Shown here: piece after piece, positions 2,865-41,578 of the stretch
How the letters are laid out: every line of letters starts with the position of its first letter
How positions within the stretch are numbered: position 1 is the stretch's first letter
Source: an uncultured Candidatus Saccharibacteria bacterium
Lineage (GTDB): Bacteria > Patescibacteriota > Minisyncoccia > Phycocordibacterales > 2-02-FULL-43-11
DNA length: 42,455 bases
Direction: 5' to 3'
Assembly: GCA_964649625.1 (NCBI GenBank)
Contig: CAZYRJ010000002.1
Span: forward strand, 1-42,455
Notes under the pieces: model-generated
What the model was told of the DNA's origin: nothing
The model's input: the letters and a program-made list of their open reading frames with translations, nothing else
The model's database searches: none
Translations under genes and position numbers: made by a program

Positions 2865-4634
2865 ATGAAATCGGAAGAGATAAGGAAACGCTTTTTGAAT
2901 TTCTTCGAGAAGCGCGGTCATAAGATCATTCCGTCGGCTTCGCTCGTTCCAGAGAATGATCCTTCGGTCCTCTTCAATACAGCCGGTATGCAGCCATTGG
3001 TTCCGTATCTTTTGGGCGAACCGCATCCGCTTGGCACCCGTTTGGCGGATGTTCAGAAATGTGTTCGGACGATAGACATTGATGACGTCGGCGATGCCAC
3101 TCATGCCACTTTTTTCGAAATGCTCGGCAACTGGTCGCTCGGCGACTATTTCAAAAAAGAAGCAATTGCCTGGAGCTATGAACTTTTGACCTCGAAGGAG
3201 GAAGGTTTCGGGCTTGACCCGAAGCGTCTTTATGTGTCTGTTTTTGCCGGTGATGAGACCTCGCCGCGGGATGAGGAATCGGCCAAGGTCTGGCTTGAGG
3301 CTGGTGTGCCCGAAAAACGTATCTATTATTTGGGCGCCGATAAGAACTGGTGGCAGTCGGGCGAAAATGGCCCATGCGGACCCGACTCCGAAATGTATTA
3401 CGATGTCACCCCGCGTGGACTCGGAGACCTGACGCGCGAACAATTTGTCGAAGCCGACAATAAGCGCGAGATTGTTGAGATATGGAACGACGTCTTTATG
3501 GAATTCCTAAAAAAAGACGGCAAGGTCGTCGGAAAATTGCCGAAAAAGAACGTCGACACAGGCGCCGGATTAGAGAGATTGTCGGTTGTCATCCAGAACA
3601 AAGACAACATATACGATACCGACCTCTTTGGCCCCATCATGGCCGAGGCCAGAAAACTTTCCGACGAGCTCCGAAGTCAAAGGATAATTGCGGACCATTT
3701 TCGCACGGCTGTTTTCATGATTTCCGATGGGGTGATTCCATCGAATACCGATAGAGGCTACATTTTGAGACGTCTTTTGCGACGGGCAATGATGCACGCG
3801 ACCGGAAATAATATCGGCGCGGAGAGCGTCTCCACCCTGGTCAACTCGATAGCCGATAAATACTCCGTTATTTACGAAAACGTTGGCTCCAAAAAGGAGG
3901 AGATAAAGAATGAGATCGTGTCGGAGCTCGTGGAGAGGTTTTCCAAGACCCTGGAAAGGGGGATCAGGGAGTTCGACAAACTGAGCGGAAAAGACATATC
4001 CGGTTTTGACGCGTTCACTCTTTTCTCAAGTTACGGGTTCCCTTTTGAGATAACTGAGGAATTGGCCAAGAAAAAAGGCATTAATGTGGACCGTAAAGGT
4101 TTTGAATCCGAATTCGCGAAACACCAGGAGCTTTCGCGCAAGGGCGCGGAACATAAATTCAAAGGCGGTCTCTCCGATACGAGCGATAAGGTCGTGCAAT
4201 ATCACACAGCCACGCACTTACTCCATCAGGCGCTTCGTGATATTCTCGGTTCCCATGTGGAACAGAAAGGTAGTAACATCACTGCGGAGCGGCTGCGTTT
4301 TGACTTTGCCCATTCTGCCAAGATGACACCCGAGGAGATCAAGAAAGCCGAGGGAATAGTCAACGAAAAGATAGCGGCCGCTATCCCCATGAATCGGGTT
4401 GTTCTTTCCAAGGACGAAGCGGAAAAAACCGGAGCGCTCCATTTTTTCGGCGAGAAGTATGGCGACCAGGTTTCCATATATTTTGTGGGGGACGATATCA
4501 AGACGGCTTATTCAAAGGAATTCTGCGGCGGCCCCCACGTTAAGAATACGAATGAGCTCAAAGGAACGTTCAAGATTAAAAAAGAAGAAGCTGTAGCTGC
4601 CGGCATCCGCCGCATCAAGGCGGTGCTTGAATAG
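2865..4634 (+). CDS. alaS: Alanine--tRNA ligase, compact form lacking the C-Ala domain
   Basis: The N-terminus MKSEEIRKRFLNFFEKRGH..PSASLVP..DPSVLFTNAGM is the class II AlaRS signature. Editing-site motifs HTATHLLHQALR and CGGPHV are present. The protein ends just after the editing core (..GIRRIKAVLE). The ATG at 2865 was preferred over the TTG at 2856. Confidence 0.92.
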   Translation: MKSEEIRKRFLNFFEKRGHKIIPSASLVPENDPSVLFNTAGMQPLVPYLLGEPHPLGTRLADVQKCVRTIDIDDVGDATHATFFEMLGNWSLGDYFKKEAIAWSYELLTSKEEGFGLDPKRLYVSVFAGDETSPRDEESAKVWLEAGVPEKRIYYLGADKNWWQSGENGPCGPDSEMYYDVTPRGLGDLTREQFVEADNKREIVEIWNDVFMEFLKKDGKVVGKLPKKNVDTGAGLERLSVVIQNKDNIYDTDLFGPIMAEARKLSDELRSQRIIADHFRTAVFMISDGVIPSNTDRGYILRRLLRRAMMHATGNNIGAESVSTLVNSIADKYSVIYENVGSKKEEIKNEIVSELVERFSKTLERGIREFDKLSGKDISGFDAFTLFSSYGFPFEITEELAKKKGINVDRKGFESEFAKHQELSRKGAEHKFKGGLSDTSDKVVQYHTATHLLHQALRDILGSHVEQKGSNITAERLRFDFAHSAKMTPEEIKKAEGIVNEKIAAAIPMNRVVLSKDEAEKTGALHFFGEKYGDQVSIYFVGDDIKTAYSKEFCGGPHVKNTNELKGTFKIKKEEAVAAGIRRIKAVLE

Positions 4635-6210: not shown

Positions 6211-7536
6211 ATGTCATTACCTCACAAGAAAAATTTTCTCCGAGACGTCTTGCCAAAGAGTGCCATTGAGAAGCCCGTTCGTCGGAGGCCTGTTGACGAC
6301 GAGCAGGAGGTTAAATACCACAAGATCGTCGAGCCGGCCGACTTGTACGTGGAAGAGAAGGCGGTTCATAAGGGGGGCGGCAAGTGGCAGATCTGGACCA
6401 TTGCTTCCCTCGCTGTTTTGGGGCTGACCGCCGCTATCTTTTATGTTTTTTCCAGTGCGGAAGTGGTTATAACGCCGCGCATTGACGAAGCGCGATTCAA
6501 CAATGATTTCAGGGCCCGTAAGGATGTCGTCATGGAGAATTGGAACGAGGGTTTGAGCTTTTCGGTAAACAAGATCGAGAATTTAGGTTCGAAAAGCGTA
6601 GCTGCTGACGGCGAGCGCATGCAACAAAAAAAAGCATCGGGAAAAATAACAATCTACAATGACTATTCGACGAAGCCGCAGAGACTCATAAAGAACACAA
6701 GGTTTGAAACTGCCGACGGCTTGGTGTACCGGATCGATCAGTCGATTGTTGTGCCGGGAAGTAAAGTGGAGAATGGCAAGACCGTTCCCGGCAGTGTTGT
6801 CGCGACTGTCTACGCGGATGAGCCGGGTACCAAATACAATATCGGCAGTACGACATTCAAAATTCCCGGTTTCAAAGGTGACCCGAAGTATGCCGGTTTT
6901 TACGGCAAATCTGACGCTCCGATGACCGGAGGCTTTTCCGGAGTCGCCAAGTATGTCTCCGATGCCAGGCAGCAAACGGTCCGTGCCGAGATCAGGAGCG
7001 AATTGGAAAAGCAGATCCTTTCAGAGGCACCGAAGAGTCTCAAACCGGGCAGTTTTATCCCGAAGGGCGCATATACGGTGGAGTTCGAATCTCAGCCGGC
7101 CCAACCAGCCGAAGGCGGAGCGGTGACCATTTCCGAAAAGGCCACGGTTACTATCTACACATTTAGGAATGAGAACTGGGATTCTTATCTAGCCCAGGCT
7201 ACTCCGTTCGCTTCGGCGATCGGCTCGAGCACCGTGATGATACAAAATCGCGACGAACTCAGCCTGGCTTGGAAATCGAGACCAACTGTTGATTCGCCGG
7301 AAATATCCTTCACGGTGAAAGGCAACGCCCGTTTCGTTTGGGTTCCGGATGGAGCGAAGCTGGCCAGCTCATTGGCCGGCAGCAAAAAGAGCGAGTTACA
7401 GAAAATTCTCGGTGATTACAGCGAAGTTTTGAGTGCTTCAGCCGCGTTAAGCCCATTTTGGAGCACTCATTTTCCAAAAGACCCGGTCAAAATAACCATC
7501 ACGACGAAGATCCCAGAATTTTCTCCAAAACGATAA
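6211..7536 (+). CDS. Membrane-anchored protein with a large extracytoplasmic beta-rich domain (possibly baseplate-J-like)
   Basis: 441 aa. A basic N-terminal tail is followed by one TM helix (WTIASLAVLGLTAAIFYVF). The segment ASGKITIYNDYS..LIKNTRFETADGLVYRIDQSIVVPG recalls, from memory only, the baseplate J/gp47-type pattern. Confidence 0.5.
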   Translation: MSLPHKKNFLRDVLPKSAIEKPVRRRPVDDEQEVKYHKIVEPADLYVEEKAVHKGGGKWQIWTIASLAVLGLTAAIFYVFSSAEVVITPRIDEARFNNDFRARKDVVMENWNEGLSFSVNKIENLGSKSVAADGERMQQKKASGKITIYNDYSTKPQRLIKNTRFETADGLVYRIDQSIVVPGSKVENGKTVPGSVVATVYADEPGTKYNIGSTTFKIPGFKGDPKYAGFYGKSDAPMTGGFSGVAKYVSDARQQTVRAEIRSELEKQILSEAPKSLKPGSFIPKGAYTVEFESQPAQPAEGGAVTISEKATVTIYTFRNENWDSYLAQATPFASAIGSSTVMIQNRDELSLAWKSRPTVDSPEISFTVKGNARFVWVPDGAKLASSLAGSKKSELQKILGDYSEVLSASAALSPFWSTHFPKDPVKITITTKIPEFSPKR

Positions 7537-8118: not shown

Positions 8119-8499
8119 ATGCGTATTCTAGGCATCACAATTCCAGACGAAAAAAGACTGCCTTTCGCTCTGCAGGTTCTTTACGGCGTCGGCCATTCGC
8201 GCGCTCTCGAGCTTCTCAACAAGGCCAACGTTTCGCCGGTTAAGAGACCGAAAGAGTTGACGACTGATGAGGAAAACGCTATCCGAAAGGCCATTGAAGC
8301 TTTTAAGATAGAGGGCGATCTTAAGCGCGAAGTCGGCGCAAACGTAAAACGACTCAAGGATATAAAATGTTACCGCGGTGTTCGCCACATTCGGGGATTG
8401 CCAGTTTGGGGTCAGAGGACAAAGACCAACTCGAGGACTCGAAGAGGGAATGCCAGAAAGACCATGGGTACCGGTCGCCGAGCGCTTGATAAAAAATAA
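8119..8499 (+). CDS. rpsM: 30S ribosomal protein S13
   Basis: 126 aa. The pattern is MRILG..IP..K....AL..IYGVG...A..L, with a basic C-terminus. Confidence 0.94.
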   Translation: MRILGITIPDEKRLPFALQVLYGVGHSRALELLNKANVSPVKRPKELTTDEENAIRKAIEAFKIEGDLKREVGANVKRLKDIKCYRGVRHIRGLPVWGQRTKTNSRTRRGNARKTMGTGRRALDKK

Positions 8500-8506
8500 T
8501 TAATGA

Positions 8507-8563
8507 TAGGCGCTAGGCCTTAGGCCCTAGGCGCTAGGAATATTCCTAGAGCCTAAAGCCTGG
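8507..8563. repeat. CTAG-rich heptamer array forming an imperfect hairpin
   Basis: TAGGCGC TAGGCCT TAGGCCC TAGGCGC TAGG, then AATATT, then CCTAGAG CCTAAAG CCTGG. Four direct TAGGCNN units face inverted CCTARAG units. The array ends 9 nt before the rpsK ATG. Confidence 0.75.
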
Positions 8564-11575: not shown

Positions 11576-11986
11576 ATGCCCCCTAAACCAGCAACAAAAC
11601 AATATCTAAGAGCGATCGGCCGCAGGAATACGGCAACTACCTCAGGCCGCCTTAATCCGGCGACGAAAATGTCCTTTTCGTTGAACGGCAAGACCCTGGA
11701 GCAGTATTTTGGTACAGCCAATTTGCGGAGGATCGCGGAGGATGCGTTTAAAACCTCAAAGGTGGAAGGGTTCTATAACATCACGGCTATGATCAATGGC
11801 GGCGGCATCGTCGCTCAAGCCGAGGCTCTTCGGCACGGCATTTCAAGGGCCCTTCTCTTACAGGATGCGGATCTTCGCAAGAAGCTCAAGAAAGCCGGAT
11901 TCCTCAAGCGCGACCCCAGAATGAAAGAACGCCGCAAGTTTGGTTTGAAGAAAGCGAGGAAGGCTCCCCAATGGAGTAAGAGGTAA
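11576..11986 (+). CDS. rpsI: 30S ribosomal protein S9
   Basis: 136 aa. The S9 C-terminus is GGG...QA.A.RHGISRAL......LR..LK.AGFL.RD.R.KERKK.G..KARK.PQ.SKR. Confidence 0.93.
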   Translation: MPPKPATKQYLRAIGRRNTATTSGRLNPATKMSFSLNGKTLEQYFGTANLRRIAEDAFKTSKVEGFYNITAMINGGGIVAQAEALRHGISRALLLQDADLRKKLKKAGFLKRDPRMKERRKFGLKKARKAPQWSKR

Positions 11987-12010
11987 TTTCGACAATTTCC
12001 GCTCGATATC

Positions 12011-12110
12011 GGATTTGGACACACGTTTACGATAGCCTTCCGAAGTCCCGTACTGAAGTAATCTTCTGGTACTGGGACGAGAAAGATTCCCTCAGTGGAG
12101 TAAAAGATAA
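12011..12110 (+). pseudogene. Frameshifted relic of an rpsI (S9) 3' end
   Basis: 12090-12110 reads CCT CAG TGG AGT AAA AGA TAA (PQWSKR-stop). This matches the last 7 codons of rpsI (11966-11986) at 17/21 nt, and all four differences fall at third codon positions. Upstream, in another frame, GF...RSPVLK weakly echoes GFLKRDPRMK. The strong terminator follows the relic, not the intact gene. Confidence 0.55.
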
Positions 12111-12115
12111 AATAA

Positions 12116-12147
12116 ACTGCCCGGTCAAAGCCGGGCAGTTTTCTTTT
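12116..12147 (+). terminator. Rho-independent terminator
   Basis: 9-bp stem ACTGCCCGG (12116-12124) / CCGGGCAGT (12131-12139), followed by TTTCTTTT. Confidence 0.8.
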
Positions 12148-12170
12148 GATTCTGTGAAAAAACTTCGTTA

Positions 12171-12199
12171 TTGACGTTATCGTATAAACGTAGTATCAT
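12171..12199 (+). promoter_or_regulatory. Sigma70-like promoter of the 12273 orphan
   Basis: TTGACG (12171-12176), 17-nt spacer, TATCAT (12194-12199). Confidence 0.55.
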
Positions 12200-12272
12200 A
12201 AATGCGGATCAACAACACACTGGTTGGAACCAGAAATCGTTGTTTGATAACTGAAAAAAGGATACAACTCAA

Positions 12273-12941
12273 ATGGGTAAACCATCCTCTGTCTCTACTG
12301 GCTCTGCTCTCAATTTTGGAGCAGAGATGTTGAAGGTTCTGTCGCCAATCGTTCGCGAGATGTCACAAGGAGACATCGACTTCTGGAAGAAGAACCCGCG
12401 ACGCCTTCAATCAGAAGTACGTGCCCTACTCTTGACTAGCCGTCCGGAGATAGACCTCTGTTACCACACGAATGACTCGGTTATCCAGCCAGTGCTGAGT
12501 GAACTCGTTCCTGGAGTCAAGCCCATTAAGCTCAAGCCAGGTGCTTCGTTCGTTATCGGCTCACGGTGGCTACAAGACGCGGGTGACGAAACAGTGTTTT
12601 CGGTTGCCGTCTTAGTTTACGCAAACAACGAACGCGTAGATAACTGCGCGCAAGTCAACTTTGAGCAGACGTTCAATCCCACGGCTATCAAACTGCCGGA
12701 CATCCGAATCTCGCTTCGAAATTTGTTCGACTCACGACATGGCCAAGGTCGCACTGATTCGTTTAAAACAAGTATGGAGCTGATTGTTGAGATGCTCTTT
12801 GCTCGTTACGGTACTTTGCACGTATACCGTGCTGAATCGGCCACAGAGTCGCCAACACTCGAATTTGAGCTCCAATATGGTACATGGTTGGACTCCGCCC
12901 AGGTCTCATCCGAAGGATTTGAAGACGTATTTATCCTCTAG
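12273..12941 (+). CDS. Hypothetical protein (orphan)
   Basis: 222-aa ORF with AAGGA 10 nt upstream of the ATG. It has its own promoter and terminator. No motif recognised. Confidence 0.6.
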   Translation: MGKPSSVSTGSALNFGAEMLKVLSPIVREMSQGDIDFWKKNPRRLQSEVRALLLTSRPEIDLCYHTNDSVIQPVLSELVPGVKPIKLKPGASFVIGSRWLQDAGDETVFSVAVLVYANNERVDNCAQVNFEQTFNPTAIKLPDIRISLRNLFDSRHGQGRTDSFKTSMELIVEMLFARYGTLHVYRAESATESPTLEFELQYGTWLDSAQVSSEGFEDVFIL

Positions 12942-12961
12942 TTTACAAAATTTCCCTCAAG

Positions 12962-12988
12962 GCCGATACATTAAGTGTCGGCTTTTTC
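12962..12988 (+). terminator. Rho-independent terminator
   Basis: GCCGATA (12962-12968) / TGTCGGC (12976-12982), with one G-U pair, then TTTTT. Confidence 0.6.
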
Positions 12989-13030
12989 TAAGTCCAAATT
13001 GACCGAAAGCGATCCATCGCAGCTTTTTCA

Positions 13031-13066
13031 GTTGCAATATACTCACGGCCGTGAATATATTGCAAC
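13031..13066. promoter_or_regulatory. 36-bp near-perfect palindrome (candidate operator)
   Basis: GTTGCAATATACTCACGG|CCGTGAATATATTGCAAC has one mismatch between its arms. Its core TCACGGCCGTGA is a perfect 12-mer palindrome. The right arm overlaps the -35 of the downstream promoter. Confidence 0.65.
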
Positions 13067-13088
13067 TGTTTATGATAGAGAATACAAT
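13060..13088 (+). promoter_or_regulatory. Promoter of the PaaX-like gene
   Basis: TTGCAA (13060-13065), 17-nt spacer, TACAAT (13083-13088). The ATG at 13099 lies 10 nt downstream. Confidence 0.55.
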
Positions 13089-13098
13089 TTGTACTAAG

Positions 13099-13671
13099 AT
13101 GGAAAGAGAATTAAAAAATGCTTTAAGGAGAAAGAAAATTCAAAAGGCAATACTATACAGCTTAGCGGCAGCTGGGATGATGAGCGTTGCCGTTATGGTA
13201 CCAAATGCCTTGCAGATGCTGAAATTGTTTGACAAGCGCGTAATTAAGGATGGCAGAAAATACAACTTAGATAGATCACTTGATCGATTGCTATATCAGG
13301 GGCTGGTCAGATTTGAGAGAAATGCACATGGTAAATTTCTTCAATTAACACCTCAGGGTAATAGAGAGGTCGTTTATATCAAGCTGAACGAAAAGTTGAG
13401 AAATGATGTGAAAAAATGGGACGGGAAGTGGCGAGTTATTATTTTTGATATAAAAGAAGTTCGGCGAAGTGTACGGGACCAAATTCGGCATACGCTTAAA
13501 ACATTGGGTTTTATCAAATTGCAGCAAAGCGTATGGGTTTACCCTTATGATTGCGAAGATTTCATCACCTTATTAAAACTAGACGCTCGGGTCGGAATGC
13601 AGCTGATTTATATGATTGTCGAAAAGATAGAAAATGATAAAAAACTTCGCACTGTATTTGGGCTTAAATAA
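13099..13671 (+). CDS. PaaX-family-like / Cas2-fold-like putative transcriptional regulator
   Basis: The start was set at MERELKN inside track ORF 13051..13671. The N-terminal part looks like a winged helix (..LDRLLYQGLVRFERNAHGKFLQLTPQGNRE). The C-terminal part, WDGKWRVIIFDIKEVRRSVRDQIRHTLKTLGFIKLQQSVWVYP, resembles the PaaX C-terminal / Cas2-like ferredoxin-fold pattern. By eye the gene is richer in A+T than its neighbours. Confidence 0.55.
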   Translation: MERELKNALRRKKIQKAILYSLAAAGMMSVAVMVPNALQMLKLFDKRVIKDGRKYNLDRSLDRLLYQGLVRFERNAHGKFLQLTPQGNREVVYIKLNEKLRNDVKKWDGKWRVIIFDIKEVRRSVRDQIRHTLKTLGFIKLQQSVWVYPYDCEDFITLLKLDARVGMQLIYMIVEKIENDKKLRTVFGLK

Positions 13672-13695
13672 TATTCTTGTAGGTTTACCTAATGT

Positions 13696-13719
13696 TCACG
13701 GCCGTGCACATATTGCAAT
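13696..13719. repeat. Second, partial copy of the palindrome half-site
   Basis: TCACGGCCGTGCACATATTGCAAT matches 13043-13066 (TCACGGCCGTGAATATATTGCAAC) at 21 of 24 positions. The two copies are direct repeats flanking the PaaX-like gene. Confidence 0.65.
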
Positions 13720-13779
13720 GATTTGAAAAGGTGAACATCATTCCTGTCATGTATGATATGTAGCGTATGTATCAGGGAA

Positions 13780-13820
13780 CAATATTATCCTTGCTGGGAG
13801 CACAAGGAGTGCTAATATTG
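13780..13820. terminator. Hairpin between convergent genes (possible terminator)
   Basis: Outer arms CAATATTA / TAATATTG enclose inner arms TCCTTG / CAAGGA. The hairpin starts 5 nt beyond the stop of the minus-strand exonuclease gene. The T-tract is weak. Confidence 0.35.
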
Positions 13821-13825
13821 CCACT

Positions 13826-32038: not shown

Positions 32039-32890
32039 ATGTCCGAGGGAGAAAGACTGACAACCGAACAATATTGGGATTCGGTATATAAGGAGCCTCC
32101 AAAGAAGGCTTTTTCTATTACCAAAACAGTAGGCGACCTTCTAAAAAAAGTTTTCGGTTCGCGTATCAAGAATTACAGCGAATACATCCTGTGGACCAAT
32201 CTGTACCAAAAGTATCTGCCGAAAGGCGAGGGCCTGAAGATCCTGGAGGTCGGGTCGGCGCCTGGCTGGAACCTGGTAAAATTCCACAGGCAATTCGGCT
32301 ATGCGCCTTACGGTATCGAGTACGCGCCGCATGGCGTCGAAGAAAATCGCCGCCAGTTCAAGGCGGCCGGCTTGAACCCTCAAAATGTCATTCAAGCCGA
32401 TTTCTTCGAGGACAAATTATATCTTCGCTATGCGAATTATTTTGACCTCGTCGAGTCGGGCGGGTTCATCGAGCATTTCACTGACGTCCCCCCTGTTGTG
32501 CGCCGGCATATTGACCTATTGAAGCCAGGAGGAACGCTGATAATCATCATTCCTAACTTCAGGGGTTTAAATAATAAGTTGTTCGGTTATTTTAATCCTG
32601 AGGTTTTAAAAATGCACAACTTGGAGATCATGAAACTCGACAATTTCAGAAAGACTTTTGCCGCCCTGGGTTTAGAAGAACAGTACGCCAACTACTACGG
32701 CACTTTCAATTTCGGCATGTTCAACACTGCAGGCAGCGGATTCAAATACTATCTGCACAGATTCCTAATAAGATTTCAAGTCATATTAAATATATTCTTT
32801 ATTCTCCTTTTCAAGAACAAGGGGTGCGAAACACGATGGACGAGCCCATATCTCATATATATCGGCGTAAAACCGAAGAATAAAGAATAA
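32039..32890 (+). CDS. Class I SAM-dependent methyltransferase
   Basis: 283 aa. Motif I is ILEVGSAPG, the post-I acidic residue is present, and LKPGGTLIIIIPN follows. The C-terminal tail is hydrophobic. Confidence 0.72.
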   Translation: MSEGERLTTEQYWDSVYKEPPKKAFSITKTVGDLLKKVFGSRIKNYSEYILWTNLYQKYLPKGEGLKILEVGSAPGWNLVKFHRQFGYAPYGIEYAPHGVEENRRQFKAAGLNPQNVIQADFFEDKLYLRYANYFDLVESGGFIEHFTDVPPVVRRHIDLLKPGGTLIIIIPNFRGLNNKLFGYFNPEVLKMHNLEIMKLDNFRKTFAALGLEEQYANYYGTFNFGMFNTAGSGFKYYLHRFLIRFQVILNIFFILLFKNKGCETRWTSPYLIYIGVKPKNKE

Positions 32891-40249: not shown

Positions 40250-41578
40250 ATGAAAACAAACCCAAAAAATATTTTGGCCCTGATCCTTGTCGGGGCATTT
40301 CTATTTTCCATCGCGTACGCATTTTATTTCAGGATTGAACCTACGGTCGACGCCGACGCTTATGACGCGATAGCGATCAATTTAGTTGCCGGAAACGGCT
40401 ATGTCGAAAATACGGAAATTCCATTAGCCGAGGATTCGGCCATTGGCCGTGTCGGCCCAGGGTATCAATTTTTTCTTTTCCTCGTCTATAAGATCTTCGG
40501 TCATCATTACCCAGTCGTGTGGATGATCCAGGCTTTGCTTCACGTGTTGACGGGCGGTATGTTATTTCTCATCGCCTCCAAACTTTTCAAAGAACGGGGA
40601 CAATGGATCGGGCTCATAGCAACTGCGCTATATATATTTTTTATAGATGTTATTCAGATGAGCGCCATGCTCATGACAGAAACGCTCTTCCTGTTCCTGA
40701 CCGCGTTGTCAATATATTTCTTCGTTCTATTCTACGAGCGGCCGAGCAAAGCTAACGCCTTGCTCCTTGGTGTTGCCACAGCGCTTTGCATTCTAACCCG
40801 ACCGACCGCGCTCCTTTTATTGGTGATGTATCTTATTTTTGCCGTATCGAAGAAATATTTTGTCCAGGCGCTTATTCTCGCCTTATGCTTCACTTTCATA
40901 ATCGGGCCTTGGACTTCAAGGAATTACCGCGTTTATGATCGGTTCATCATGACGACGGCCGCGGGCGGTTATGACATCTGGGTTGGCAATAATCCGGAAG
41001 CGAGCGGTGAATTGGAAGCGTCGGCCACCATCACGGCATATCTCGACAATTACGGAGTCGAAGCGGCGGATAAAAAGGGGATTGAGGAAGTAAAGAAATT
41101 CATACTGACCGAGCCTTTGAACTTCATCAGGCTTCAGCTTATTAAAACGTCAATATATTTCAGCGCGGCACGGCCCTCGGCTTTCTGGTTCCATCTCTCC
41201 GGGACGTCAAAAATGGCGACCGTCGTGCTCTCGAGTATTTTTGCTTTTGTTACGTTCGCTTTAGGGTTTGCCGGGTTGTGGCTCGCGTTCAAGAAGCGCG
41301 GGATTTTCCGGTGGTTGGCCGCCTTGACGCTTGCCGCTCCGGTTGCCGTCATCCCTATCATAGTGGAGACGCGATACAGGTTTCCGATATACCCATTGAT
41401 GGCGCTATTCGCGGCGTACTTTGTGCATGAGATATATCAAAGCCATCGGGCAACAGGGAAATTCGCATGGACACGAGAGCTCAAGATATTCGCCGTTACG
41501 GCCTCGGTCGTGATGCTTAATACGGTTTTCGACGCCTGGCGGAACTTTGATGTCGTTAAGGATAAGCTCGGCCTATGA
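40250..41578 (+). CDS. GT-C fold membrane glycosyltransferase (GT39/GT83, ArnT/PMT_2-like)
   Basis: The start was set at MKTNPKN, where TGcTAGAAT (40228-40236) lies 13 nt upstream (track start 40190). There are about 11 TM helices. The first extracytoplasmic loop, DADAYDAIAINLVAGNGY, is typical of ArnT/PMT-type enzymes. Confidence 0.7.
   Translation: MKTNPKNILALILVGAFLFSIAYAFYFRIEPTVDADAYDAIAINLVAGNGYVENTEIPLAEDSAIGRVGPGYQFFLFLVYKIFGHHYPVVWMIQALLHVLTGGMLFLIASKLFKERGQWIGLIATALYIFFIDVIQMSAMLMTETLFLFLTALSIYFFVLFYERPSKANALLLGVATALCILTRPTALLLLVMYLIFAVSKKYFVQALILALCFTFIIGPWTSRNYRVYDRFIMTTAAGGYDIWVGNNPEASGELEASATITAYLDNYGVEAADKKGIEEVKKFILTEPLNFIRLQLIKTSIYFSAARPSAFWFHLSGTSKMATVVLSSIFAFVTFALGFAGLWLAFKKRGIFRWLAALTLAAPVAVIPIIVETRYRFPIYPLMALFAAYFVHEIYQSHRATGKFAWTRELKIFAVTASVVMLNTVFDAWRNFDVVKDKLGL

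Follow-up and report, generated by a model that had tools for sequence, protein, structure and literature searches.

When prophages e14 and phage 21 integrate in the Escherichia coli gene icd, they restore its 3' end, and in fungal mitochondria the atp6 gene of Allomyces has received a mobile-ORF insertion, with a C-terminal duplication, that carries a homing-endonuclease open reading frame (ORF). The rtT repeats of the E. coli tyrT operon are 178-bp units, each of which closes with a repeat of the tRNA-Tyr 3' end, and small units of another kind, the mycobacterial interspersed repetitive units (MIRUs), are found in mycobacteria. In streptococci, integrative and conjugative elements (ICEs) and integrative and mobilizable elements (IMEs) integrate in the 3' ends of rpsI and rplL (PMC4701971, PMC7168690). 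A further class for comparison comprises the repetitive extragenic palindromic (REP) sequences and REPINs, their REP-associated tyrosine transposases (RAYTs; TnpA_REP, Y1 HUH), and the GTAG tags on the palindromes (PMC3733652, PMC3479197, PMC8266576). Here we analyze a 42,455-nt stretch of DNA (the window; contig CAZYRJ010000002.1 of assembly GCA_964649625.1) in which rpsI, the gene for ribosomal protein S9, is followed by an insert without ORFs and then by a second, untranslated copy of its own 3' end.

We give a probability of about 70% to the reading that the second copy, at positions 12090-12110, is the outer arm of a duplication of the rpsI end around a hairpin insert and that this insert belongs to a family of tiny gene-end-duplicating insertions in Parcubacteria and related bacteria of the candidate phyla radiation (CPR). 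The duplication recurs across loci and genomes, the hairpins and cores between the copies are conserved and covary, and sites with the second copy (filled) and without it (empty) are scattered on the tree. The inserts sit exactly at conserved gene ends, namely at the 3' ends of rpsI, fusA, rplL, a HIT-family gene, and tRNA genes and at the 5' ends of a gap-like and a clp-like gene. The gene itself remains whole, since a full copy of its end is retained on the side of the insert that faces the gene. The window's rpsI locus (L001) belongs to a 1.25-Mb metagenome-assembled genome (MAG) of 108 contigs, designated G000; a sister genome of the same genus is designated G003. The features of the locus are as follows.

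11576..11986, + strand: rpsI (ribosomal protein S9), intact, 136 aa (Pfam Ribosomal_S9, E=3.4e-35)
11955..11986, + strand: inner (live) copy of the duplicated end, in frame with the rest of rpsI: codons (A)RKAPQWSKR plus TAA
11987..12044, + strand: left part of the ORF-less insert, starting TTTCGACAATTTCC (11987-12000); 39 nt of it (11990-12028) are absent in G003
12045..12078, + strand: type B hairpin, GTCCCGTAC-TGAAG-TAAT-CTTCT-GGTAC-T-GGGAC, its 3' foot abutting the outer tail copy
12078..12110, + strand: outer copy of the rpsI end, CGAGAAAGATTC CCT CAG TGG AGT AAA AGA TAA, untranslated
12114..12151, + strand: intrinsic terminator of the rplQ-rplM-rpsI unit, 4 nt past the stop of the outer copy

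The original prediction, made from the letters of the window, had pointed to a second PQWSKR-stop behind rpsI that matches the first at 17/21 positions with synonymous differences only, and this description holds. The tail of the gene, CCC CAA TGG AGT AAG AGG TAA (11966-11986), and the last seven codons of the outer copy, 103 nt away, differ by four third-position synonymous transitions. Over the whole assembly and both strands, 12090-12110 is the sole 21-mer that matches the rpsI tail with no more than 4 mismatches, the runner-up having 5, and no further stretch of the window comes within 3. The second copy is a true homologue, and the homology is longer than had been noted: farther upstream, CGAGGAAGGCT-CCCC... 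(from 11955) matches CGAGAAAGATTCCCT... / CGAGAAAGATT (from 12078), with 8/12 identities and a 1-nt indel, and the repeat as a whole measures about 32 nt (11955-11986 versus 12078-12110). Owing to the indel, the outer copy does not keep the frame of the live one ahead of PQWSKR; an A-to-F change is found there as well. A further echo of S9 that had been proposed, GF...RSPVLK, proved to be a chance resemblance (best local score against S9 of 23, compared with 21.6 ± 3.2 for shuffles, 34% of which score as well).

Chance similarity of the whole tail, or an assembly artefact in the form of a strain-variant chimera, has a practically negligible claim on these data. A MAG in 108 contigs might harbor such a chimera, and two co-assembled strains would give differences that are only synonymous; against this, the match is unique in the genome, the same architecture occurs with homologous spacers in independent MAGs and in metagenome contigs from different studies, and the spacer is not the rpsI-flanking sequence of any variant.

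Several other explanations for the second tail were considered and rejected. A small ORF ending in PQWSKR would have to use a frame that opens after the TGA at 12054-12056 and runs for 17 codons without an ATG, GTG, or TTG start or a Shine-Dalgarno sequence. An intron, a translational bypass, or read-through to the outer copy is unsupported, given that the live copy has its own stop and that indels are present in the outer copies of G000 and of another rpsI locus (L020). A variable-repeat/template-repeat pair of a diversity-generating retroelement does not fit either, as the differences (C/T, A/G, G/A, and G/A) are silent, lie in the invariant S9 tail, and are not confined to adenines. Rfam matched no ribozyme or intron family at the rpsI insert or at the relatives' loci; the best matches in the spacer fell below the gathering score (GA) (His_leader, 23 bits for a GA of 49; U12, 24 bits for a GA of 53), and the rpsI loci of 11 relatives gave nothing.

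The insert between the copies is about 91 nt long and ORF-less, and its right end is the hairpin at 12045-12078, which folds at -18 kcal/mol (z=-3.9 versus shuffles) and is flanked by ACGAAG on its 5' side and CGAGAAAG on its 3' side. That the terminator follows the second copy and not the live gene, as had been proposed, is also correct: a stem of 12 bp with 7 GC pairs (12114-12141) is followed by a T run. In empty relatives, the terminator stands at a similar distance after the single rpsI stop.

The sister genome, whose S9 is 74% identical to that of G000, has a homologous insert behind rpsI. The 5' flank and foot of the hairpin, ACGAAGTCCCGTA, are identical, and the 3' foot GGAC and the AGAAA that follows it (GGAC.AGAAA) are conserved, while the upper stem has been wholly replaced with pairing kept, which amounts to compensation. 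The foot beside the outer rpsI copy has thus been conserved between the two genomes although their synonymous sites are saturated. The outer copy of the sister genome, (T)RKAPQWSKR-stop, is intact, and the left 16 nt of its two rpsI copies are identical. Two further genes are filled there: the gap 5' end, with copies identical at 31/31 positions, and rplL (locus L232), where the stop is followed at once by a perfect antisense of the tail, 16 nt long, and where the outer GGKVELK-stop is intact. The fusA gene of G003 is empty, and its EF-G C-terminus is 92% identical to that of G000.

The same layout recurs elsewhere in G000. We checked each ORF end for a downstream echo of its own tail (4483 ORF ends, 400 nt each). 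A tail match with at most 4 mismatches was found at only 13 of the 4483 ends, several of these being further real cases, and echoes of at least 5/7 amino acids numbered 9, compared with 1.1 in a tail-permuted control. Gene identities were confirmed by Pfam where tested. These 3' cases, together with the 5' sites found through the hairpin, are the following.

Window contig, + strand: rpsI, PQWSKR-stop, echoed +103 nt after the stop, 4 differences, all synonymous; type B hairpin
Contig C1, reverse strand, stop at reverse-complement position 40815 (about 4722 on the + strand), outer copy ending at 40924 (about 4613 on the + strand): fusA, IIEKRK-stop, echoed +88 nt after the stop, 4 differences in the last 21 nt, all synonymous; type B hairpin
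Contig C45, + strand, stop at 4249, second copy at about 4292-4330: HIT-family gene, 13 codons, KFGQPKNYKSKK-stop, echoed +60 nt after the stop, synonymous differences only, including AGC to TCG
Contig C37, + strand, stop at 8432, outer copy ending at 8521: rplL, VELK-stop, echoed +68 nt after the stop
Contig C22, + strand, 12826-12974, type B hairpin at 12906-12934: gap-like gene, 5' end, 40-nt repeat to the start codon
Contig C23, reverse strand, type B hairpin at reverse-complement positions 6269-6306: clp-like gene, 5' end, 21-nt repeat including the ATG

At fusA, the EF-G end ..AAGIIEKRK-stop recurs as ..VASIIEKRK-stop, with a 3-nt deletion further up and a CGCGTAG..CTATCGGG hairpin between the copies. 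The HIT-family gene has a 42-nt spacer with a GTTGCAGAA..TTCTGCAAC hairpin, and a terminator follows its second copy; at rplL, GGKVELK-stop is echoed as SGWVELK-stop. No primary sequence common to the four spacers (rpsI, fusA, HIT, and rplL) was found with blastn-short. The rpsI and fusA spacers have in common the hairpin foot CCCGTA[G/C]...[G/C]TAC(T/C)GGG, which defines what we call the type B hairpin. As this hairpin is too short and information-poor for a covariance model, it was sought by a motif regular expression and a folding filter. The expression gave 4 short matches in 1.25 Mb, plus one tRNA-linked variant, and each of the 4 (rpsI, fusA, gap-like, and clp-like) lies between two copies of a gene end and has its hairpin directly against the outer one (z-scores of -3.9 to -5.3 versus shuffles). 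At the 5'-end sites the motif strand is antisense to the gene, which indicates that its orientation is set by the geometry of the duplication and not by transcription; this pattern argues for a role at the level of DNA rather than RNA. The displaced 5' copies at the gap-like and clp-like genes keep a good -10 box 6-7 nt before the ATG. Since the live start lies behind the insert at both, the promoter must sit in the insert or read through it. A different repeat was seen on contig C3 (+ strand, about 32290-32500), where an exact 45-nt tandem-type repeat, CACGCACTCCGGCGGCATTAATCGCTTCGCTCTTATGCCACCGGCA, recurs 180 nt apart beside a run of Ns where the contig ends; a repeat-induced break in the assembly is the probable cause, not a duplicated gene tail.

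To place the window's locus among its relatives, rpsI loci were gathered from related genomes (40) and from contigs of GTDB genomes (80) and of metagenomes (80); 173 distinct loci reached far enough downstream for the comparison. They are all from Parcubacteria/Paceibacterota, the closest named relatives being Candidatus Taylorbacteria. About 16-17 of the 173 (~10%) are filled, with a second S9 tail and stop 27-150 nt past the real stop and just before the terminator, in the order live tail, stop, hairpin spacer, second tail, terminator. The repeats are 12 to >60 nt long, and in every filled case the similarity of the two tails stops at the stop codon. The idea that both copies bear the signature of coding evolution is borne out by these loci: when the last 7 codons were compared in 13 cases, 37 of the codons that differ did so synonymously and 6 nonsynonymously, and the differences fall on codon positions 1/2/3 in the ratio 9/7/41. 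In 7 cases the two copies use different serine codon families (AGY versus TCN). The outer copy had been called a relic, which describes part of what we see. Roughly half of the outer rpsI copies have decayed (Q to H, Y, or L; R to C; the indels of L020 and G000), but the hairpin foot next to the G000 copy, conserved to the sister genome at synonymous saturation, does not suit simple decay.

On a quick, low-resolution L13+S9 tree of 140 loci, the filled state requires 13 changes, within the 12-14 obtained with shuffled labels. Two filled loci, L048 and L216, have inserts that are 81% identical, loops included, in hosts whose rpsI third positions are 41% and whose S9 proteins are 59% identical, a likeness that points to horizontal movement. 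Two of the related genomes, G001 and G002, are empty at both rpsI and rplL. In a Campbellbacteria MAG (L013/L078), one long hairpin that encloses the terminator is built from the rpsI tail, a terminator hairpin, and an inverted copy of the tail that is perfect over 19 nt, with no clear outer direct copy of the tail; the element may be in a partial, or in some other, state here.

At nine relatives' rpsI loci, the place of the type B hairpin is taken by a larger structure, the type A core (GGGGGTCGGGGAAAC..GTTTCCCCGTGGAGGAAGG..TTGGAAAACCGnGGGTTTCCAA), in which 10 of the 25 helix pairs show compensatory changes. It matched no Rfam family. A covariance model built from it (R1) gave up to 11 matches per genome at E≤1, of which about 4-6 were strong, and most of them lie just 3' of tRNA genes. 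The order at these tRNA sites is tRNA end, loop (often a terminator), antisense of the tRNA end, type A core, and second tRNA end. The rpsI loci of the relatives keep this order: past the stop comes the tail in reverse complement, YTTRC-GACA-nTGnGG, and in 11/13 instances the live copy is a better pairing partner for this antisense than the outer one. One genome (G016) has two tandem cores after rpsI and three tails with increasing decay. In G000, the three R1 copies (C71:11-96(-), C4:15373-15467(-), and C57:3008-3079(+); E of 6e-11 to 9e-4) are not beside tRNA genes according to ARAGORN; the C57 copy is 1.5 kb from a RAYT-like gene, beside GGGGATAA repeats. The antisense candidate of the window's own insert, TTTCGACAATTTCC at 11987-12000, bears a degenerate likeness to the relatives' YTTRC-GACA-nTGnGG / TTTGCGACAnTGnGG module, and its pairing with the G000 tail is no better than that of shuffles; for the rpsI, fusA, HIT, and rplL spacers of G000, RNAduplex gave p=0.06-0.96 for antisense to their own tails.

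Direct repeats of a gene 3' end with a surrogate end are a hallmark of integrase sites, and rpsI and rplL are known ICE and IME targets (PMC4701971, PMC7168690). The two rpsI tails might on these grounds be attL and attR of a tyrosine-integrase element that has lost nearly everything in between, as in a cis-mobilizable element (CIME). The preference of the related type A core for tRNA 3' ends and the resemblance of its tail-loop-antisense order to a core-type site with inverted arms would suit such an origin. Yet neither an integrase nor any other ORF stands between the repeats at the approximately 17 rpsI loci or at the tRNA loci, and each genome has a single Phage_integrase (PF00589) match, Xer-like and on another contig. 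The inserts measure 27-150 nt throughout, the repeats vary from 12 to >60 nt, the covarying hairpins indicate a single-strand fold and not a protein-binding duplex, and the type B hairpin is also found at 5' gene ends. An integrase remnant is therefore highly improbable.

A second alternative is that the insert is a host-beneficial 3'-UTR or 5'-UTR (untranslated region) module of RNA or DNA, inherited vertically and kept by selection, for example, with the outer copy serving as a decoy for the antisense or the whole as a transcript stabilizer. Its position within the transcription unit, ahead of the terminator, would suit this, as would the folding of the whole stretch 11960-12155, which is better than that of shuffles (z=-3.9). 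The conservation of the hairpin foot and flank between G000 and G003 despite saturation at neutral sites and the perfectly coding state of the G003 outer copies at rpsI and rplL point the same way, and REPs are thought to work as RNA elements downstream of genes (PMC3733652). Vertical inheritance does not sit well with a filled state that is scattered like random labels on the tree, with fusA filled in G000 and empty in G003, or with near-identical inserts in hosts of 59% S9 identity. At 5' ends, moreover, the hairpin strand is antisense to the gene, its orientation following the duplication geometry; about half of the outer copies carry indels or nonsynonymous changes; and a pairing constraint does not explain the switches of serine codon family. 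We consider such a module quite unlikely as the main explanation.

If the tail was duplicated by an insertion, the question arises which copy is the older. The original prediction held that a recombination or integration event had supplied a new 3' end and displaced the old one. To assess the polarity, the codon spelling of live and outer tails in filled loci was compared with that of the 156 empty rpsI loci, in which serine AGY:TCN stands at 55:68 and TAA:TAG stops stand at 106:49. The live tails of filled loci depart from this both in serine (AGY:TCN, 13:2; p=0.002) and in the stop (TAG:TAA, 11:6; p=0.013), while the outer copies (AGY:TCN, 8:5; TAA:TAG, 12:3) are indistinguishable from empty loci. 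Together with the antisense, which is co-spelled with the live copy, this skew favors the outer copy as the displaced native end. It is thus probable, as far as codon usage can tell, that the live inner tail came with the insert. The polarity that had been proposed is accordingly the favored one; the single event is not, as the layout recurs across loci and genomes.

Because serine codon families switch between the copies and their similarity stops at the gene boundary, we infer that the two tails are independent samples of functional ends, one of them from another lineage. A filled allele, once present, could be taken up as DNA and exchanged by ordinary homologous recombination, in which the gene body would supply the left arm and the outer tail copy the right. 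At each transfer the recipient's own end would become the new outer copy, no longer translated and subject to slow decay, and repeated transfer would re-sample functional tails, which would explain why the differences are only synonymous. Occasional gene conversion between the two copies is likely to occur as well; identical or mosaic copies, such as those at the G003 gap gene and in the left 16 nt of the G003 rpsI repeat, would fit either gene conversion or transfer within a population. We hold this mode of spread between lineages to be a serious but somewhat doubtful possibility.

The first insertion at a new gene would require a separate mechanism, for which the best candidate is an enzyme that acts in trans on single-stranded DNA. 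This candidate suggests itself because of the REP-like hairpin with its GTAG/GTAC motif and the 10 RAYT-like Y1 (HUH) genes of G000. The PF01797 matches number 10 in G000, 8 in G003, and 1-5 in other genomes; in G000 they lie on contigs C3, C22, C13, C11, C57, C9, C27, C17, and C19, and most are in intact ORFs of 220-245 aa, such as those of 223-245 aa on C22, C11, C57, C27, C17, and C19. Some of the RAYT-like genes are flanked by inverted repeats of their own, CTACAAGGTCCAACCTTGTA on C27 and a TGGGGATAAGTCCAATT-type repeat on C22 and C57. In its fullest form, the proposal would make the inserts undescribed, protein-less, and retargetable mobile elements whose hairpin or core is handled in trans by RAYT-like Y1 (HUH) enzymes. 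Such elements would insert with precision at gene and tRNA boundaries, would copy the gene end or bring one along, to serve as a repair patch and portable homology arm, and would cross species by natural transformation; taken as a whole, this is unlikely.

Several observations weigh against an insertion family of the kind we favor, or against parts of that reading. The polarity statistics treat related elements as independent, and in the one filled/empty pair at fusA (G000/G003) the spelling favors a native outer end by just 4:1. No close filled/empty rpsI pair (>75% S9 identity) was present in the genome and metagenome collections, in which the best relatives have ≤74% S9 identity. No RAYT-like gene in G000 is flanked by the type B hairpin; the flanks hold other repeats (CTACAAGG... 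and GGGGATAAG-type). The G000 rpsI insert has no type A core match (R1 gave none in the window locus at E≤0.01, and 9 other rpsI loci match at 45-93 bits), no significant tail antisense, and no sequence shared with the other spacers beyond the hairpin foot, so that its membership in the family rests on architecture, position, and a short motif. Finally, the filled rpsI, gap, and rplL sites are common to G000 and G003, which suggests old vertical inheritance, and the outer copies of G003 are still perfectly coding. This combination is hardly what a neutral relic would show, barring frequent gene conversion or re-acquisition, and the outer copy could be functional.

Directly past the rpsI terminator lies a further insertion:

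12152..13825, + strand: separate insertion of ~1.6 kb, not part of the duplication, absent from G003

The rpsI-hisS interval, which had been singled out for comparison among relatives, shows this segment to be an insertion. In G003, an exonuclease gene (exo) and hisS follow the rpsI terminator directly; in G000 they lie 1.7 kb further away. The island holds a promoter-like site (12171-12199), an orphan gene (12273-12941), and a PaaX_M/Cas2-like gene (13099-13671). Its status as an insertion might suggest that the duplicated tail is a one-off scar of illegitimate or homology-facilitated recombination left by the arrival of the orphan/PaaX-like island, the more so as the PaaX_M-like gene belongs to a family of 13 paralogues in G000. 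This account is contradicted by G003, which has the homologous insert, the outer copy, and the terminator but no island, and by the same duplication at five other G000 genes and at rpsI in distant genomes without the island; its probability is very small indeed. The orphan/PaaX-like segment that had been linked to the second tail is thus itself inserted, but since G003 has insert and duplication without it, the two are separate.

Within the island, the promoter-like site is sigma-70-like (TTGACG-17-TATCAT, 10/12) and stands directly past the rpsI terminator, upstream of the orphan gene, which has no homologue in any fetched locus. The PaaX_M/Cas2-like gene has about 12 further tblastn matches across G000 (28-46% identity, some partial), which makes a family of 13, large for a 1.25-Mb genome, and homologues occur near rpsI in 8 other Parcubacteria loci.

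If small inserts can indeed settle at gene ends without harm, they would have found an economical form of genome parasitism, or could have been domesticated for regulation, in CPR genomes, which are minimal and in which the ends of essential genes are precious. Should the outer copy work as a homology arm, the inserts would mark, and possibly carry, recombination between distant CPR lineages. Were a Y1/HUH enzyme to act on them, REP/RAYT biology would extend to a long templated target duplication, and the inserts would offer a natural design for scar-free insertion at gene boundaries. On the practical side, gene callers, programs that look for att sites, and counts of pseudogenes can all be led astray by these duplications in thousands of MAGs. 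A full-text literature search found no published description of gene-end-duplicating hairpin inserts in CPR bacteria, and this kind of insertion at CPR gene and tRNA ends is apparently undescribed.

Within the proposed family, the G000 rpsI insert resembles the type A inserts in having a direct duplicate of the gene end past its core, with similarity that ends at the gene end; it differs in its simpler core, a single REP-like hairpin, in its vestigial antisense, and in having a hairpin that is also found at 5' gene ends. Like ICEs and IMEs, prophages, and integrase-less CIMEs, the inserts are bracketed by a repeat of the gene end, have a surrogate end that differs silently, and are found at rpsI, rplL, and tRNA targets. 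Unlike ICEs, IMEs, and prophages, they are 27-150 nt long and ORF-less, with no integrase in any copy, and they combine a covarying single-strand hairpin or core, often with target antisense, with use of 5' gene ends and a variable repeat length.

The hairpin itself resembles REPs, which are 20-40-bp palindromes that bear a GTAG (or CGTC) tag at one end. It is an imperfect palindrome of 30-46 nt with GTAG/CTAC in the foot of its stem (GTAC in the rpsI copy), this sequence sitting 3 nt inside the type B foot CCCGTA[G/C]...[G/C]TAC(T)GGG; it lies just outside coding regions and mostly past stops, its upper stem varies over a conserved foot, and RAYT-like PF01797 genes are abundant in the genome. 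REPs, on the other hand, are high-copy and are not known to duplicate the end of a neighboring gene (the word "duplication" is absent from PMC3733652, on REPs), whereas the inserts described here number about 5 copies per genome, each bracketed by 20-60 nt of duplicated gene end. A REPtron is a poor match as well, for the RAYT-like genes are flanked by other repeats. Related to the REP/RAYT comparison are the palindrome-associated transposable elements (PATEs), which are non-autonomous IS200/IS605 derivatives. An IS200/IS605-derived PATE or a miniature inverted-repeat transposable element (MITE) was considered and rejected: these have hairpins or terminal inverted repeats at both ends and a target duplication of none or 2-10 bp, and the insert has a single right-end hairpin and a 20-60-nt duplication.

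With rtT/RttR and MIRUs, the inserts have in common that small ORF-less units stand behind a tRNA or other gene, repeating its last ~19 nt or preserving gene ends at operon junctions. Such units are, however, confined to one locus (rtT) or are without antisense or hairpin core, and they are not known to target the ends of protein genes in different phyla. The case of Allomyces atp6 offers a parallel in the arrangement of the gene itself: the insertion falls within the final codons of an essential gene, which is kept working by a foreign end with silent changes of spelling, while the original end is stranded downstream; the difference is that the inserts described here would accomplish this without any ORF.

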